Origin: Camelus dromedarius
Taxonomy: Eukaryota
NCBI RefSeq assembly: GCF_036321535.1
Contig: NC_087436.1
Location: 72,294,001 to 72,358,000, forward strand
Direction: 5' to 3'
DNA length: 64,000 nt
Within the stretch, counting starts at the first letter, position 1, and every line of letters starts with the position of its first letter. A program made the translations under genes and the position numbers. Positions 17,550-38,689 of this stretch are shown here, piece after piece. The notes beneath the pieces are model-generated. The model had not been told where the DNA came from and searched no databases. It was given only the letters and a program-made list of their open reading frames with translations.

Positions 17550-18872
17550 ATGGCCCGCACCGCGACCCCCGCCGCCCCCCGGCTCCTCCGCGCCGCGCTG
17601 CTGCTCCTGCTCCTGGTGGCCGCCGGCCGGCGCGCAGCAGGTGAGACGCGGCGCCCGGCATCGCCGGGGCGGGTGGGCGGGTGGCTGGGCGCCCATCCCC
17701 GGACGGCCCCCTAACCGAGTCTGCTCTCTCTGCAGGGGTGCCTGTGGTCACCGAACTGCGCTGCCACTGCTTGCAGACCTTGCAGGGAATTCACTTCAAG
17801 AACATCCAGAGCGTGAAGGTGACGGCCCCGGGACCCCACTGTGGCCAAACGGAAGTCATGTAAGTGCCGCCGCTGCTGCGGTCCTTTTCACCGCTACCCT
17901 CCCTGTCCCCCCACCCTGACCCCCAGCCTGACCTCCGGCCTCACGTGGTCTCCCCTCTCTCTGCAGAGCCACTCTCAAGAATGGCCAGGAAGCTTGTCTC
18001 AACCCCGCAGCCCCCATGGTTAAGAAAATAGTCGACAAGATGCTAAACAAGTGAGTTAAGGTTTCTTATTCACACGTGTGACTAGGGTCATTCTGCCTCC
18101 TGAAAACTGTATCAGAGAAACCCAGGGTTTAGCTGAAGGAATGGAAAATCATTATTTCACGATTAAATTTGCCATTAAGATCATTAATCTGCTCTGATGC
18201 CAAGATATTTTCAGTGCCTTCCATCCTGGCCCCTGACTCCATCCCAATTCAGATGAATGCAGTTTAAGCTGCTTTCATTAAAATTCTCACTGCGGTTGGC
18301 CAGTTATGCTAAAAAAAAACTGTATAAAAAACACAGGCACACCCCCCTCCCTACCCCCAACACATACACCTGCTCCAGTTCTTTCTGGGCTTCACACCTG
18401 AAAAGCAGAACCTTCGTTTTCTGCAACATAAGCTCTTAAAGCTTAGTGGTAAAGAGCAGGGACTTTGCAGCCAGTTGGTATTGGGTACAAATTTGGATTC
18501 CACCACCTATTAGCCATATGACTCAAGGACAATTATTTGGTTTATCTAAGACTTAGTATAACAGGGAAAACAATAGTAGCTACGCATGGGTTTACTGTGA
18601 GGCTTAAGCGAGGCCCAGTGTGACAGGTAGACAGTAATGGTTCTAGCCATTTGTAGCCAACACTGCAGTGGAGACCGCAGACCCTACCCCATTCCTGAAT
18701 AAGAATATCCAATAGCCTAGAGGTCTCTGCCACACAGCATAGCAGGTGCCAGGCTGGGAAGACTGGATTCAGAAATCTGGGGAGCAGGATAGGAGAAGAC
18801 TGTTGTGCAGCCAGTTTTCTGGAAGAGCTCCTAAGAAAATCCTTTTCTCATTACAGGGGCAGCTCCAGCTGA
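17550..18872 (+). CDS. CXCL1/2/3: ELR+ CXC chemokine, GRO family (CXCL1/2/3-like), 104 aa, 4 exons: 17550-17640, 17736-17859, 17967-18050, 18857-18872
   Basis: Spliced product [104 protein letters not shown]. It has a signal peptide, ELR-CXC, 4 Cys and GT-AG introns of 95/107/806 bp in phases 1/2/2. The exact paralog cannot be resolved by eye. Confidence 0.97.
18440..18645 (+). mobile_element. MIR remnant in GRO intron 3
   Basis: gcttagtggtaaagagcagggactttg..gggtacaaatttggattccaccacctattagc..gtgaggcttaag. Confidence 0.55.
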
Positions 18873-21261: not shown

Positions 21262-23703
21262 AAGAATGTGTTTTTCCAAACTGTGCACTGGCCCCTCCCC
21301 CTCAGTGCAAGAATAACTACAATAATATATTGCCTTTTATAAGGAGTGTCTTGCTACCTGGCTGCTCAAGTTTACCTCCTTAAAAACATTTGCATTCTTG
21401 TAGCTATCTTAAAAAGAACTCTCATTTCATTGCTTTTGCTAAAGGATTTTTTAAACTATTATTGATAATTTAATGAAGCTTACAGTGAAACTGCAGTAAA
21501 GAGGATTTTTTTTCTTCAAAACACAATTTGTCATTAATAGAAGGAGAAAACATGAGTGGCTAAGTAGTTAATTCATAAAAGGTCTAATGGATTTTGGGGT
21601 TCAATTTTCTAAGCTTTATTTATAAGTAGTTACCACTGAATCTAACATTATCCCAACTCTTTATACCAATTTATCAAAAATAGTAGAATGATTTTGAGAC
21701 TTGAATGCATTAGTTCTCACCCTTCCCAGTGTAATTTTTATGGAACTTGATGGATTGTTTGGCCTCAGAAAGCCCTCTGGAACTTGGTGTTCACACTGCC
21801 CCCGGATAACTGCTGCAAATCAGGTTTCCAAGACAGAAACAAAGTCGTTATGTCAAGGGAAGAAAGATCCCGATCATGTAGAAGAAACCACCCTCCAAAA
21901 CTGAAAAGGAAGAATATTTTTAGATGTTTGGGGTGTGTGTTCGTCTCTGATTCTGGACTCATTCAGGAAATCCGGAGCCCTAGAGAGAAGCTTGCCACAC
22001 AGGCAACAAAGTGAGGCTGGCATCCTGAACACTTGAGGTCAAGTTCAGGCTTGCTCCAAGGAGTTGGGTAAATAAGGGTTCTCAGGAGTGAGAAATAACT
22101 TCCATGAGCTTTGCTTCACACTGAAAAAGCTAAAAATGATAATCTTTTCATAACTCCAATATTACTGATAATGAGATGAGAAGGAAGAAACTTCATAAAA
22201 TGTACAAAAGTAAATAAATGCAAATCTTCTGGAAACTCCGTAAGTGCTAGCATTCACCCCAAGTCAGAGGACACAGGAAAATATTCACAAGTAGGACGCA
22301 GAGGGTTCAGTGAAGCTCTCACACCTAAGACCAGTCCTCACCCTCAAACACGGAGCTTGCTGTCCCGGCTGCTTAGCTCTTGTCAACACACAACATGGAG
22401 TTTCAAAAGGAGAAAGACCATTCTGTTCATACGGTGATTAAGACAAAGGTTTCAAAGAATCAGATTTACTTGGGAGTAAATTCCAACTCTATCCGTTGTT
22501 GACTGTGTGATCTTGGGCAAGTTTCTTGACTCAAATGTATTTTCCCTTCTATACAATGAAGGTAACAACAAGAGAATTACTGTCTAGTGTTCAATCTGGG
22601 ATAACTGAATGTTCATTGTATATCTTTCTCTGATGCCAAAAGGTAGAGTAACACAATTATAATACATGATTAAATGCAATAGTCCAGATACTTCTTTTTT
22701 CCTTTTCAAATAAATACCTGCTATATACCACCTCTTTCCCCACCAAAAAAGAAGAAGGAGGAAGTTGTTTTTAAAGCCAGCTCTTCAGGGAAGGAAAAAC
22801 AAAACAAAACAAAACTGAGGTCTAATAAAATTTTGTGTAGTACTTTAAAAAGTAGAAATCTCTGTTGCATGAATTAAATGTTATCGATGGCTTGAAATAT
22901 CTGCCATTTGTCCTCTGGCCAAACCCCTGGGTGTTGTCTCAGTCACAGTCCTTGATCAAGAGGATACGTAGTGTGTTTTCACACCAAAGTGCCCTGAAGA
23001 CTTTCCAAGTGCAAGGCAGTTCCCACTGGGAGTGTCAGGGCAGGAAGTGAAACACAGGAATGTAAGGTAGGGGTCAGGGATGAAAGAAGTAGGAAACGAA
23101 TATGATGTGTCACATCACAAATTTGAAAGGTCATCAGCAGGAAACAGCAAGGAGCAGTGACTGAGATTTCCTGAGCAATGTTACCAAAGGAGAGGAGAAC
23201 ACGTGGCTCACCCAGTCTTGTCATTGTGAGTCTTTCTTTGTGAGTTGTATTGCGATGTCTTCTCGGGACTTCTGGAAGTGACTGGGGAAACACTGGGAGA
23301 TGGCAGAGGTGGCAGACCTGCAAAGCGTAATGGGAACAGTCCAGAATGACAGATGATCTTATCTCTCTTTTCTCTGACTAGCCATACAAGTAATAAGGGG
23401 AAGGGCTTGTCCTATCTTCAATGTTGATACTCCACTCACATCCCCTCTGCTTACAATGAGTTCTGAAGTTGCAACGGGTGACATCTAAACACGCTGCTGG
23501 CTTCCCAACTCAAGCTCCCCTCTCCTGCTTCCTTTCTGGGAGTTTTCTCCATTTGAGGGCGGGGAGGGGGGATGGCAGAGGAGTTTGCTCAGCTGACAGG
23601 TGGGATGGCCTGCCATGGGACAACTCTCAGTGAGTGTCAGGAGTTAGTGGATGTGCATTCTATTTTTTAATCCCTCAATTGGACATTTCTAGAAGTTACA
23701 CTA

Positions 23704-26794: not shown

Positions 26795-26905
26795 CTTGCA
26801 AGTGACACACACGCCACTTGATAAGCTGTTCCTTTTATCCTTCAGTGGGAAAAGAGTGCAAGAACAACCAAGAATAGGAGGGTCACAGAGAGCACATAAA
26901 CGAGG
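26795..26905 (+). promoter_or_regulatory. Putative relic promoter of the CXCL15-like gene
   Basis: CATAAA at 26895-26900, inverted CAAGTG/CACTTG pair (26799-26804, 26815-26820) and GATAAG (26820-26825). Confidence 0.4.
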
Positions 26906-27849
26906 GCTGCAGCGTCGATTCCACCTTTCAGACAAGGATCAAGATCAGGCACAGACACGGCTGCTGAGAGCTCTCACATGCTTCTGCTGGCTGTCCCTGT
27001 CCTGGTATCTCTGGTGAGGCAATCGTGGCTTTTATCTTTTGCTTTTAGGCACTGAAAAAATTCAGAAAAGTTTCCATATCCCATGAAATTGAATCTGGTA
27101 TTAAGGCAAAATGTAGAAACTATAAAATTAAAACTTGAAAAGAACACATATTTAGATGGTCGAATATCAAAAAATTCTTATTGAGTTAAATTTTTAAAAT
27201 CTGTTGAACTTCCTACAAATATCTGAATATAAGGGCCTGAGCTTTCCTTATTAGAGACAGTGGAGCATTATTACAAATAGGTTTAGGGGGTGATGGTAGG
27301 TGGATAGAAACTGTCACATTCAGCTGATAGAATTCACATAAAATCTTTGTGTTTACAATGTTTTACTGACGGAAATCAAGTTGATTTAACCATTAAGTAA
27401 GTTGTCTTATTGACCATACATATTTTTAAGCAATAAATTATTCATCTAGAGTCCTTCCCCATTTCTCAAACACAGTAGATGCTTCATAGAAGTTCATTGA
27501 CCATAATACCAGATGATTAGAATTGTGTGACTGTCCCCCTAAATATTTCTAACAGCACTTGTTTTGTCAGTTGAGTGTCCTGCTGCACGATTTCAAACTT
27601 CAGTTAAAGAATTAAGCTTCATAGCTGTCTTTGTTCTTAGTGTTTGCTATATTTTTTTCTCACACAGCTGATATTGTGAGAGCTAAGATTTGTGATGTCA
27701 GTGTATTCAGACACATTCTGACTTTATTTCTCCCAAATTCAGCACAAATGTCCAGGTGATAGCTGAAGGTGGTTATTGTAACAGCAAAACAATCAGGTAA
27801 GTAATAAAGATGTGGGGGGAGAATGAAAGCTTCTAATACTGGGCTTTTC

Positions 27850-28955
27850 TTTTTTAAAAAACTTTCCCCCCAGTTTTATTGAAATATAATTGACATATAT
27901 CACTGTATAAGTTTAAGGTATACAGCATAATGGTTTGAATTACATGTATTGTGAAATGATTGCTGCAGTAAATTTAGTTAGCATCTATCATCTCTTATAG
28001 ATACAATAAAAAGAAAAAGCAAAAAATGAAAAATAATTTTCCTTGTGATGAGAACTCAAGATCTACTCTCTTAAAAGCTTTTATATATATCATACATCAG
28101 TGTTAACTGTATCATCGTTTTTTAAAATCTTTTTTTAATGGAGGTACTGGGGGCTGAACCCAAGACCTCCCATGTAGACTAAGCATGCACTCTACCACTG
28201 AGCTATGCCCTCCCCTCAGACAGTATATTCTCTGTACTTATTTACCTTATAACTGGATGTTTGTACCTTTTGATCAACTTTATCCAATTCCCTTACCCCC
28301 CCATTCCCTGCCTCTGGTAACCACATAAATGATTTCTTTCTCTATGACTTTTTTTTAATTAGATTCCATATATAAGTGAGATCATACAGTATTTGTCTTT
28401 CTTGGACTTATTTCACTTAGCATAATGCCCACAAGGTCAATTCCTGTTGTTGCAAATAGTGGAATTTCCTCGTTATTTATGGCTGAATAATATTCTACTG
28501 TATATACATTTACCATAACTTCTTTATTCATTGATCCCTGGCTGGACAGTTATTTTGTTTCATGTCTTGGCTATTGTAAATAACACTGCTGTGAATATGA
28601 AGGTTAGTTTTAAGTTAGTGTTTTCATTTCTTTAGGTTATATTCTCAGAAGTGGAATTGCTGGGTCAGATAGTACTTCTATTTTTAATATTTTGAGGATC
28701 CTTCATATACTGTTTTCCATAGGGGCTGCACCAATTTACATTCCCACCAAAAGTACACGAGGGTTCTCTTCTTCACATCCTTGCCAGCATTTGTTAGCTC
28801 TTATCTTTTTGATGATAGCCATTCTAACAGGTGATATCTCACTGTGGTTTTGATTTGCATTTCCCTAGTGACTAATGATGTTGAGCTTTTTTTCACGTAC
28901 CTGTGGACCATTTGTATATCTTCTTTAGAAAAATGTCTATTCAAATCTTTTGCAG
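27850..28955 (-). mobile_element. Antisense L1 3' fragment in CXCL15-like intron 2
   Basis: L1 3'UTR and ORF2 end on the minus strand, TSD tgggcttttc (27840-27849/28959-28968). Confidence 0.88.
28118..28217 (-). mobile_element. tRNA-derived SINE nested in L1
   Basis: atggaggtactgggggctgaaccc..ctctaccactgagctatgccc. Confidence 0.85.
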
Positions 28956-32960: not shown

Positions 32961-33741
32961 TATTATGTTATCATTATAATTTTTATTATGATCTGTTCCT
33001 CATGTAATGAACTTCAAAGGAATGGAGCTTTGTGATTTTGTTAAGTGCAGTTGAAAACTACAGAATTAATTCAAATAAAGAATTTATGCTCTCCTTCTCT
33101 CTTCCAGTAGTAAATGAAGCTTTAATGAGATCCTGAAAGCTAACCAAATTAGCAGAGGTATAATGATAAAGAATATACAGTAAGTGATTGATAACTGGCA
33201 GCCTAGAAGATCCTCTCCATATACAGATTTTCTGGAATCTGTCAATATACATTATACATTGTAAGTCCAATAAATGTTCACTGATTGGTTGATTATCTCA
33301 AAAGACTCTAAGAAAAGATTTTTATCTTCTAGTTGATATTTTAAAAATTTGTCACATGCACTGATATGAGTAAAAGTTATATTCTAATAACATGATTATT
33401 GTAGTTTGAGAAATCTTTGTGTTCAAGCATATGAATTTCATGTTACAGAAATTTTAATGAATAAATGTAAAGTATTATTAAAATAAATACAGTTATTATT
33501 TAACCAAAATACTCTTTTCTTTTCAGTCACATTGAAAAGTGGAAAATTAATTTGTTTGTATCCTGAGGCCAAATGAGTGATTAACTATTACCAAAAAGAT
33601 TATGAGCAGGTATAATTAATTCCAAGGATTCTCATATTTATAGTGTCTCTCTTTTCTTTTAATTAAAGATATATTTAGAAATATATACAAACTCTGCTGT
33701 AGATTAGAATAAAATTACAATAAGGCTAGAATAAGCTTGTA

Positions 33742-33917: not shown

Positions 33918-35799
33918 TTCAAATGTTCTATTTAACATGATATCCAAGTTGACCTACTTGTGAATATCCCCATTGGATAAAAAGGTGATTTAAAATTGCT
34001 AGATGCTGCCTTACACAGACCAGCAAGGCAGGAAACAGAGCCATTTGATGAAAGAAATTTTAAGAAAAAACTACCCCCCTTGAAAAAAAAATTGGGAGCA
34101 CAATATTTCTAGAAATTAAACTCCAAATAAAATTCAAAAATTGGTGAATGGAGAAGATACAATAAAGATAGGCAGGTGAAAAAGGGAGTGTATTTGGATT
34201 AACTTCTGAAAAAAACATAGTTTTTTTTTTTTTTTTAAGTCATTGCAGTGAGTAAGACCACTTACAATGGAAGAACTTAAAATGGTGATCACTTATAATG
34301 GAAAAACTAAATTCTGTAGATTTTTAATTAAAAAATAGAAAAGAAACAAAATGAAGGTATGTGGAGGCTATGATTCACCTGAGAGTCACCTTGGCAGTTG
34401 AGTGGTATAATGTTCTGGGAAGAGCTTGGGTTTTAATTCCTTGAGCTGTGGTTTAGTATTCCAGATCCATAGCTATGTCATTCTGGATAATTCACTTAAC
34501 ACTGGGGATTTACATGCTTCCATTTGTTCTTACTTTGTTCTATTAAGGGAGAAGTAGAGCTAATACATGTAATTAATAATGGCCATTATTAATTTTCAAC
34601 TTAACCAAATACATGGGCTTTTTCTTTATTCTTTAGGGGTTTTTTTCCTTACATGGGACCACAAGTGAGTAATCCTGTGTATCTGTATAGTTACATGTCA
34701 CTCTCCTTGTACTGTAGATCCCCTAACTGATGACCACACAAGGAACATCACATTCTATGAGTTTCAAGATGAGCCCTTGGTATCATCGTGAGCTCAGACA
34801 TCCTGCAGATTTTCCTTTGAAAATAGCACCTACTTATGCTAACTTAGGACTGGTATGAGATGCTTTCTCTACTTATTCTGGAGACTTAAGCATTGCATTC
34901 AGACAGGTGATTGGCTGCTTGTGCTGGGGATAATGAGGGGAGAGGTAATAAAATTTCCATTATGTAGGAAGGATTATCTCCTGAACTCATACAGTAGATG
35001 AGAGATTTCCCCGTTAGGCTCAGTATCTCTTCGCAGATTCTGCCTTCTCCACGATGTCGCCTGCCACCCTATAGTCCATTTAACTTCCTGGTTGACTTTG
35101 ACATTTGATCACTGTTTTTCTCTCTGCTTCTTCCTTTCATATCATCCTTAATGACATTAGTATATTTCTTTATTAACTTATCAGCACTCTGATCTCTTGA
35201 TTGCTCAACATTTTGCATCCCAAAGGCTTTAAATCTCCTCCCTATTTTTAGTCACCCACGACCTTGGATCTCAGCATAAAATAAGGCTGTTTATCTGTAG
35301 TCTTCAAAACTAAAATGCTTCTTTTAGGGAAATTTTCATTTATTATAAGATCTGAAGTAAGTATGCATTTAAGATGGAAATGGGATGTCATACAGTTGTA
35401 TAACAGAATCGTCTTAGATTGTAATAACTTACTTTAATATGTAGTTTAGTAGTAAGCAAATCTAATAGATCATCAGCTTAATTACATCAACCAAAAATTG
35501 AACTGAGTCAACCTAGGAAACTGTAAGGTTGTCCTGTGGGATGAGAAGAGGGAGGGAATTTAAGACCATTAAGATCCAGGGCAGATCACAAGAATGCTGC
35601 CTTGGAAAGATAAGGCAGAAAACACAGAACTAAAGCTATGTTGTAATCATTTATATCTTCTTGGTAGAATTTCTGCAGATGTAACACCAGAGTAAGTGGA
35701 TAAATATCCTTTTTTTTTTCTGTTTCTGAAGAAAAAAATGTGTTAACCAATGAATGATGTTCTCATGGAGCTAGTAAACAGAAATGCTGCTTCTGAAAG

Positions 35800-36126
35800 T
35801 GTCTTTGTCAGTTGGGGCTGCTATATTACAATAGACTGGGTGGCTAAACAACAACTCTGGAGACCAGGAGTCCAAGGTCAGGGTGCTAGCAAGGTCGGGT
35901 TTTTGGTGAAGACCCTCTTCCTGGTTTCCAGATGACCACCTTCTTGCTGTGTCGTCACATGGTGGAGAGAGCTAGCTCTCTGGCCTTTTCTTATAATTAC
36001 ATTCATAAAGTCTCCACCCTCATGACTTAATTACTTCCCAAAGGCCCCACCTTCAAATACCATCAAACTGGGATTAAGGTTTCAACATACAAATTTTCGA
36101 GGGACACAAACATTTAGTCCGTAGCA
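35800..36126 (-). mobile_element. MaLR MLT1A-like LTR
   Basis: tagactgggtggctaaaacaac..gggacacaaacatttagtccgtagca. Confidence 0.78.
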
Positions 36127-38689
36127 GAAAGGGACTGTTTATGGGCACTGGAACCCTCAGGACCCTCTCTTGTCATCTATAGTGTCTTTGCCTCTGTCTG
36201 CCTGCCTGAGGTTTCTCTCTTTCTTCCTCCTCTCTGCTATTCTGTCCTCAATGGCAAGTCATCCACTTACTTTTCCTCAGATCCCATTTCCAGTTTCTGA
36301 GAGAGAGGACCTTATTGGCTGTATTGGTTCAGGTCCAATGAACTGTGGCTAAGGGGCAGTGGTTACAACGCAGTGGTGCAAACAAGGCCATCTGGGACCC
36401 ATCACTGTTAAATGAAGGAACAGTTCTCAGTAAGATGAGAGTTTTTATGAATTGTCAGTTACCTCCAAAGGATTATATCACTGCATGTGTGTGTCTGCGT
36501 ATGTGAGAGGGAAAAACAAAGACAGGAAGAAAAAACACAATTCCTCAGAGGAATCTATTGTTCCTTAGAGCTGACCACACATATTGAAAGAGCCCTAGGC
36601 AAAAAGTCCAGAGGTCTGGGGGCTATGATTCTGAGCAAATATCTAAACTTCTCTATTCTCTGTTGTAAATGTGAAAACGTGGCAAAAACATAATAACAAA
36701 ACAAAGTATCTCCATCCCTCACAAAATAGTTGAGAGGAAATAATAGAAAGTAAGCATGAAACATCATAAAGTGTTATCCTTATTATTATTAACATTGTAG
36801 AATCATTTCCCAATTAGTATTTCATAAAGCCAATTTGAAGGTACCTATTCACATTGTCTTATCTACCATTATGTGGACCAAGCCTCTAAACTGTCCAAAG
36901 CAGATGGCACGTTTTGCTGCTATGGATCATGACAAAAATAACAATCATGTTATTAAGCTACGTACTAACAGTTAGCTCTGAGATGGAGCTCTGTAAAGGA
37001 ACTATATCAGGACCATGAGTACAAGACCAAGAGTAGTTTGCAATATAAAATTCCAAATTTCATGAGAAAGGGTCTAGTCGGCACAGTTTGAGTCAGGCAC
37101 CCACTCGTGATGGTCTCCCCACTATGGACAGGAATGTAGGAACACACCACAGAGACACGGCTGCCAGGAGCCACCCGGGATCTAGTTTCTTCTTCTGTAA
37201 AATGTCAACATTAATATCTACTTTAGAAGATGATTAAAAGGACTGAAGAAGTGAACGCCTTGCACCTATTTGTGCTCTAAAAGTCATACCAAATTACTAG
37301 TAGTCTTTCGGAAGGTATTCATTTCTTGGCTTAAAGCTTTCATTTAAACTGTTCCCTCTACTTGGGTCAGTTTCCCTTGCCCTGTCTCCTTACTCTTCAC
37401 TTAATCTAACATTCAAAGGAGCTAAAATCTGAAGAGTGATCTTAGTTTGTATGTCATTTCCTCCAGGATGCCTTCTCATACCCCTCAAAGCTGGGGTACT
37501 TGCTCCTTGTCCATCTAAGCTGTCAAAATTACAATTGCTTCGCGTTTCACCTCATTTCACAGAGGAAGCTTTTAAATCAACACAAATTTCTGTAACTGCC
37601 AACAATTGTAAAACCCAGCTAGTGGCAGAGCCAAGGAATGAAGCCAGGAATCTTGGTTTTTTAACCCCAATTATCACCATTACTTCCGTTTAAGCTGGCA
37701 GGACCAGCTCCACCCTGGTTACACCCAGATTCTGTGGGATGCTGAGACATACAACCTCCAGAAAGAGACCCTCTGTGCATTTCTGGGTGAGGTGCATTTC
37801 TTCCCAATGACACGGTAATTTATCAGGCTGTCTAAAACATCCTGACTGCTGCTTCTTGCCAGCTCTACCAACCTCCTTTCTGGTCTGGACTAATGCCTGT
37901 TTTCTGCATTTTCTTCTTTGTGCCAACAAAAATATGTTATCATTTTAATTTAGTCAAATCTCCTTCCAGAACTCATTACTCACACCAGGATTTTTCTCTT
38001 CCCTTGAGAATCGATCGTTGTCACTGTTGAAATGAATTGTCCCCCCACCTTTCATCATCACCCCCGACCCTGAAACACGCATTTACCCATGACTGTGCCC
38101 AAACTCATAGGCAAGGAGGTCAAAGAGGAGAAGGTGCATTCATTATCTTCCCCAAACCTGCTGTTTTTCTATTTTATTGCACTATATTTCATCCAGTTGT
38201 CTAAGCCAAGGAAGGGACCAAGGGTCATCACACACTGGCCTTCTCCCTCTGCATCCACTGGCATCTCCCTTTGCATCCAACCAGGCCCTAGGTGCTGCCA
38301 TTTCTACACCTGTTTCAACCCTCACTGAGCCCTCCTCTCTCTTCCCTCTGCCATTGCCTTAGTTTTGGCCATCTCAAAATTTCACCTGTATCCCTAAAAT
38401 ACCCTCCTAACTGGTCTCCATGTCTCCAGGCCGTCCCTGTCCCCATCAGCCTTATTCACTGCAAAGAGATTATTTTAAAATGCAAATCTCACTAGGTGGG
38501 ATGGAGCCCTCATCTATAAGGCAGGACAATAATTAAGAAAGAGCATTAACCAGATTATTTATGAAAATTATCAATTTTTCTTAACATTTTCCTCAAAACA
38601 CATTAAATGGGCATGGCTCCACTCCAGTTCTCTTGGAGTTACTCAAATTATGATGCTCCTAGGGCCATCTGGTCAAAAAAAAAAAGTCC

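Follow-up and report, generated by a model that had tools for sequence, protein, structure and literature searches.

CXCL15 (lungkine/WECHE) occurs in rodents, rabbit, cow and platypus and is a pseudogene in human, according to the accessible portions of PMC3749542 and PMC3568907. The former also gives the gene order of the GRO cluster and states that mouse lungkine is sometimes mislabelled IL-8. PMC7318773, in its accessible portions, reports CXCL15 in cattle and a non-functional gene in water buffalo. These portions of the three papers hold nothing on the origin of the mouse protein's tail. Two described processes come closest to what is set out below. Andreatta et al. (2015; PMC4494051, available portions) described de novo C-termini that arose from the 3'UTR by stop-codon loss in yeast and fly. 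Biba et al. (2022; PMC8935012, available portions) described compensatory frameshift pairs, found in poorly conserved segments and associated with relaxed selection; CXCL15 is not named in its main text. The corresponding portions of PMC11674266, PMC6679226, PMC9444341 and bioRxiv 10.1101/2025.07.27.667088 contain nothing on the CXCL15 tail. No account of its origin was found in a literature search that was thin on subscription journals, including the 1999 lungkine paper and a study of bovine CXCL15 (PMID 31855743).

The window analysed here is a 64,000-nt stretch of the Camelus dromedarius genome (GCF_036321535.1, NC_087436.1, forward strand, 72,294,001-72,358,000). It carries a four-exon CXCL15 pseudogene on the plus strand, approximately 8 kb downstream of a four-exon GRO-type CXC chemokine gene on the same strand (17550-18872), which has no stops in the exons read and is the only GRO-cluster neighbour within the window. 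As the two genes lie side by side, the locus is syntenic with the GRO cluster. Like CXCL15 as described elsewhere (in the portions cited), it is a four-exon CXC gene beside GRO, collinear with mouse Cxcl15 mRNA, and gene loss is already known from human and water buffalo; the camel copy differs in carrying seven lesions.

The coding part of exon 1 (26957-27013, plus strand, aligned to mouse mRNA) has ACG as its start codon (26957-26959) and lacks approximately one base near 27003. Exon 2 (27668-27796, plus strand), which retains the CXC motif, is approximately one base short near its start and contains an in-frame TAA at 27684 and a TGA at 27693. A 7-base insertion was considered as the exon 2 lesion and was ruled out by the alignment, which shows a short deletion and the two stops. 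In exon 3 (33527-33609, plus strand), TGA at 33574 replaces the conserved Trp and is followed by a 1-base frameshift; read by eye, the acceptor on offer is out of phase with exon 2. A SINE near 28140 is presumably of the camelid type. With its ACG start, three stops and frameshifts, the copy does not encode a functional ELR+ CXC chemokine, and the gene is dead. The lesion load suggests that its inactivation is old, and the locus would add a further CXCL15 loss to those in human and water buffalo.

With bat CXCL15 as the query, tblastn finds both exon 2 (P0006, E 5e-12) and exon 3, and mouse mRNA bases 23-146 match 26890-27010 (blastn, E 3e-09). In an unindexed protein search, the closest intact proteins to exon 2 were CXCL15-like, with 59-66% identity, and three of the ten matches were unrelated repetitive proteins; a word-indexed protein search with the exon-2 piece gave no match. 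Judged by these protein matches, its position in the GRO cluster and the homology of its UTRs to the mouse transcript, the pseudogene is the CXCL15 orthologue. Between the two genes, positions 23620-23703 share 61% identity with 28 residues of a chimeric otter model (P0047), with a stop in the window; this segment is possibly a cryptic exon or a repeat fragment.

A pyrimidine-rich run and an AG acceptor (34700-34717, plus strand; AG at 34716-34717) precede the last exon, which begins at 34718, where mouse mRNA base 364 onward aligns. Use of this acceptor in camel is predicted. Exon 3 ends in AG at 33609, directly before a GT donor, and the last exon is therefore read in phase 2 as R-S-P-N followed by TGA-TGA (34728-34733). 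From the mouse alignment and the orthologue ends, the ancestral coding part of this exon is 34718-34730 (plus strand), comprising the split codon, S-P-N and TGA. The neighbouring GRO gene, whose last-exon acceptor ends at 18856, terminates similarly in K-G-S-S-S-stop. Removing one C shifts the last exon into a frame that runs for 23 residues to a stop at 34789. The tract, the acceptor, the phase-2 reading, the resemblance to the GRO end and the text of the shifted frame had all been given in a preliminary description of this DNA, and the letters of the window confirm each of them. In the window, frame 0 runs into stops at 34758/34770 and frame 1 into one at 34789; frame 2 is open from 34727 to 34855.

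Which protein end is ancestral was assessed from 59 of 80 stored CXCL15-like proteins; ten were left out by identifier (chimeras, fish, platypus and one alternative isoform) and a further 11 because the anchor motif was missing. The tabulated proteins, mostly predicted gene models and with near-duplicates within species and genera, come from bats, carnivores, pangolin, ruminants, hedgehog, lagomorphs and rodents; dipodids, spalacids, nesomyids and gerbils are absent from the set, and rat stands outside the computations. Lineages were placed by taxonomy look-ups and general mammal phylogeny. The number of residues that follow the conserved Trp is 6-14 in 40 non-muroid proteins, hare, rabbit and squirrels among them, 20 in beaver and 42-87 in each of the 18 muroid proteins. 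No intact non-rodent orthologue among those tabulated shares the long rodent frame. Exactly three residues past the split codon is where 24 of the 59 proteins end, all of them among the 40 short non-muroid ones, and 15 of the 24 end in A-P-N (cats, suricate, raccoon dog, two bats, hare and rabbit). Five further orthologues end in R-Y-N, which fits run-on into intron 3; the window's intron reads likewise, and these five are uninformative on exon 4. The remaining short proteins, from squirrels and ruminants, stop at or near the end of exon 3. Zhu et al. reportedly worked on bovine CXCL15 and may compare protein ends.

The grey seal read-through model P0048 corresponds to the window's shifted frame, with equal spacing around acceptor and stop. 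Together with the 24 short intact ends, this spacing shows that the short end is ancestral and that the window copy gained no base, in keeping with the initial proposal that ancestral CXCL15 was of normal chemokine length. The preliminary description had also offered the reverse, that the long tail is ancestral and the camel pseudogene gained a base after its death. The copy is indeed heavily decayed, with several indels in exons 1-3, but carnivore, bat and lagomorph proteins that are intact end at the same codon and the seal spacing is identical, which refutes a base gain and leaves it with a negligible probability.

The ruminant and squirrel models P0016, P0018, P0019, P0024, P0028, P0064 and P0066, which end at or near the exon 3 end, have 89-93 residues, and the CXCL15 end has thus also been shortened more than once. 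Among database proteins P0047-P0050 and P0010, predicted isoforms from otter, grey seal and elephant seal link GRO exons with CXCL15 exon 3, and a rabbit model links CXCL15 with a GRO exon 3. These chimeras may be read-through transcripts of neighbouring genes or annotation artefacts.

The only rodent DNA used was a 2147-base mouse Cxcl15 transcript (L001) from metagenome contigs, which is 100% identical to the 167-residue mouse protein. That a complete transcript (L001:1-2147) is present among metagenome contigs indicates host RNA in those records. Blocks of its 5' and 3'UTRs are collinear with the window (blastn, E 2e-14 to 8e-09); in the 3'UTR, three blocks lie within 35080-36274 on the plus strand (35080-35360, 35539-35771 and 36166-36274; E 2e-14, 8e-09 and 1e-09). 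With the alignment anchored at 34718, the scores are 9.4 bits for mouse bases 364-385 and 12.2 bits for 364-463, values that none of 300 other AG-anchored window sites reaches; the nucleotide alignment to the rodent last exon that was initially called for thus exists for mouse. The mouse protein tail alone is weaker, its score being reached by five of 300 null sites. In unanchored local DNA alignment, the score was reached by 2/500 null windows for the first 100 bases, 21/500 for the distal 132 bases and 17/500 for the whole tail. Tail residues thus align downstream of the outgroup stop, strongly for the first 100 bases and weakly for the distal 132. On the mouse alignment and the protein frame calls, the plus-strand segment 34731-34820 would be ancestral 3'UTR that muroids translate as a common tail part of 31-33 residues, and a low-confidence alignment makes 34821-34956 (plus strand) the candidate 3'UTR counterpart of a distal tail seen only in Mus.

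A different account of the same junction is that muroids moved to a cryptic acceptor, the AG at 34808-34809 some 92 bases further on, or lost the sequence in between. By eye, a G-M-x-x-L-Y look-alike does stand at a fitting spacing from this AG. The cryptic site, however, scored below the 34718 acceptor in 9/9 queries (mouse DNA, -8.8 versus 12.2 bits), and the offset between window and mouse mRNA shifts by only 14 bases from the exon start to the 3'UTR match. The mouse mRNA alignment rejects this site, and such a move is very improbable.

Between acceptor and old stop, mouse has one base fewer than the window, lost within 34719-34724 under 4/4 gap penalties. The old TGA is retained out of frame, with mouse bases 373-375 on 34728-34730 (posterior at least 0.99 in 3/3 gap settings). 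With one template base removed, the fit improves by 2.3-4.3 bits in 5/5 murine queries, and cat, hare and bat fit less well. The best alignment has mouse in the shifted frame for five codons (12/15 bases identical); a gain of approximately 4 bases then puts it back into the ancestral frame at Q-K-E, and losses of approximately 6 and 5 bases take it into the third frame, in which mouse K-P-L-Y aligns to 34799-34810 (posterior 0.87-0.98). In mouse DNA against the window, the -1 and the following gain of approximately 4 bases would be a pair of frame-restoring indels; placement after the first is loose (posterior 0.3-0.6) and the exact sizes are uncertain.

These frames bear on the proposal that a single 1-base deletion made the rodent tail and that the tail follows the window's shifted frame from end to end. 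Mouse does have the -1 shift where the exon begins, and Peromyscus leucopus and Phodopus read 34775-34786 in the shifted frame. That frame nevertheless stops after 23 residues in the window, and its stop in the seal model is at the corresponding point; mouse quits it after five codons, which refutes the proposal for mouse, and squirrels and beaver do not have it. A single deletion as the whole cause is accordingly highly improbable. The central inference of the preliminary description stands, namely a normal-length ancestor, a mouse tail derived from its 3'UTR and a net 1-base loss in mouse. The shifted frame matches the mouse tail over the first five codons; beyond these the protein alignment of that description is out of register, as it had paired K-P-L-Y with E-P-L-V-S-S near 34771-34788 and not with 34799-34810.

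Nor does the extension belong to rodents at large, as first claimed. Squirrels are short, with 86-89 residues from the conserved start. In beaver (P0027), of the Castorimorpha, six residues were added separately; they match the ancestral frame (a score reached by 7/300 null sites) after an in-frame loss of approximately 12 bases spanning the stops, relative to window positions 34740-34760. All long forms are from Muroidea, and tails of at least 31 residues occur in muroids only. Six murine proteins share the mouse register; their stops correspond to in-frame sense codons of mouse, and the resulting lengths are 123, 127, 150, 153 and 167 residues. Most muroid CXCL15 proteins have 122-128 residues, Mus pahari and M. 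caroli 150-153, and M. musculus and M. spicilegus 167; rat CXCL15 has approximately 128 (PMC3749542, the portion of its supplement available). Stepwise lengthening would be the simplest reading of these lengths, the alternative being lineage-specific shortening.

It is proposed that ancestral CXCL15 was a chemokine of normal length and that the mouse tail was drawn from its 3'UTR through frameshifts, an explanation to which a probability of roughly 85% is assigned. The ancestral placental protein would have had approximately 95 residues, with a last exon coding for the split codon and three residues only, and the camel window keeps such a short-coding last exon in a dead gene. In murines, a net loss of one base just upstream of the stop would have put TGA out of frame and carried translation into the 3'UTR; the loss is seen in mouse DNA and is probable for five other murines, whose proteins are in the same register. 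Later indels in mouse of approximately +4, -6 and -5 bases, for which the frames are clear and the sizes uncertain, would have switched the frame again and led into the single frame that is open for approximately 43 codons. Losses of in-frame stops would then have lengthened the tail in steps, the lengths being observed and the direction probable.

Hamsters and deer mice complicate this history. Cricetid frames were derived from proteins; in a frame-calling control on exon 2, 33/33 residues were placed in the true frame for 5/5 proteins. The tails of hamsters and deer mice score 12.8-25.4 bits against the window UTR, with 0/300 null sites reaching each score. Against the mouse DNA template they score low (-13 to +3.6 bits), and they share little with one another (identity 0.16-0.23, compared with 0.62-0.70 for the core). 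Where the tail begins, the favoured shift is -1 for Phodopus and -2 or -1 for Mesocricetus (with a preference for -2); deer mice favour the ancestral frame or -1, the ancestral frame being as good or better (shift-0 posterior 0.38-0.99). Over 34746-34756, the calls are frame 2 for hamsters (0.96) and frame 0 for deer mice (0.80-0.95). Over 34794-34808, 8/8 muroid tails tested favour frame 2, strongly in cricetids and, at loose settings, weakly in murines; for the mouse protein alone, the terminal-frame call drops to 0.34 at the loosest setting. On these protein-based calls, sister muroid lineages appear to read the same former UTR DNA in different frames.

Such a pattern can be read in two ways. 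The tail may have arisen once, in the muroid ancestor, its middle being later scrambled in hamsters and deer mice by compensated frameshifts, and this is the favoured reading, held with some reserve. An extended end is found in 18/18 muroid proteins as against 1/41 others, removing one base improves the fit of Phodopus by 1.5 to 3.0 bits and of two of three deer-mouse proteins by 0.2 to 0.7 bits, and cricetid tails end within one or two residues of one another, at 122-124 residues from the conserved start. Alternatively, tails would have come from the same 3'UTR two or three times, through a -1 shift ahead of the stop in murines, a -1 or -2 shift in hamsters and direct stop loss in deer mice; their ends would resemble one another since no more than one frame stays open over such a length. 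The differing frame calls at the tail starts speak for repeated origins, as do the low tail identity among murines, hamsters and deer mice (0.16-0.35, against 0.55-0.70 in the core), the single long open frame in the window and the separate extension in beaver. Weighed against the shared muroid occurrence, the gain on base removal and the near-identical cricetid ends, repeated origin is the less probable course, though one to be taken seriously.

In either case, the cases of PMC4494051, as far as its available portions describe them, are alike in that non-coding sequence was co-opted into the C-terminus of an old protein; they differ in being still polymorphic, whereas the CXCL15 tail is fixed in a mammalian clade, has 31-76 residues and would have grown in steps. 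The pairs of PMC8935012 (available portions), in which two indels restore the frame, may have a counterpart in CXCL15; the difference would be that the CXCL15 indels lie in translated former UTR, DNA which sister lineages appear to read in different frames. The mechanism that turns 3'UTR into a tail is thus known in general, and CXCL15 is a further example, one not found described for this gene.

The tail would most likely be tolerated as a weakly constrained addition to a chemokine core that remains intact. Mouse mRNA encodes it, and among six murines whole-tail identity is 0.69, compared with 0.70 in the core. Conservation is highest at residues 106-122 (mean identity 80%, core 70%), an excess that was not significant (Fisher p 0.43, for a stretch picked after looking); no significant signal of selection on the tail was thus obtained in the six murines. 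The rough neutral chance of finding neither stop nor frameshift across them is 0.008-0.06, using an assumed indel rate, and 0.25 for stops alone. AlphaFold models mouse residues 106-122 as a two-strand hairpin (pLDDT 72-85, from a 33-row alignment) and the Peromyscus tail as disordered (pLDDT below 50). The mouse core has an ordinary CXC fold (best Z 7.7, rmsd 1.9, 64 aligned) in a fold comparison whose matches were all chemokine cores. From this conservation and these models, it is conceivable but doubtful that murine lungkine now makes functional use of the former UTR, with a folded motif at residues 106-122. If it does, muroids would first have retained the tail for its length or its end point while compensated frameshifts recurred, and a folded motif would later have become fixed in one subfamily.

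Approximately half of mature mouse CXCL15 (73/142 residues) would be recent former UTR that is absent from other mammals, and mouse lungkine would therefore be a poor stand-in for the CXCL15 of cattle, cat or bat. The locus offers a dated, stepwise mammalian case of non-coding DNA becoming protein, and its natural length variants (95, 101, 122-128, 150-153 and 167 residues) make the function of the tail directly testable.
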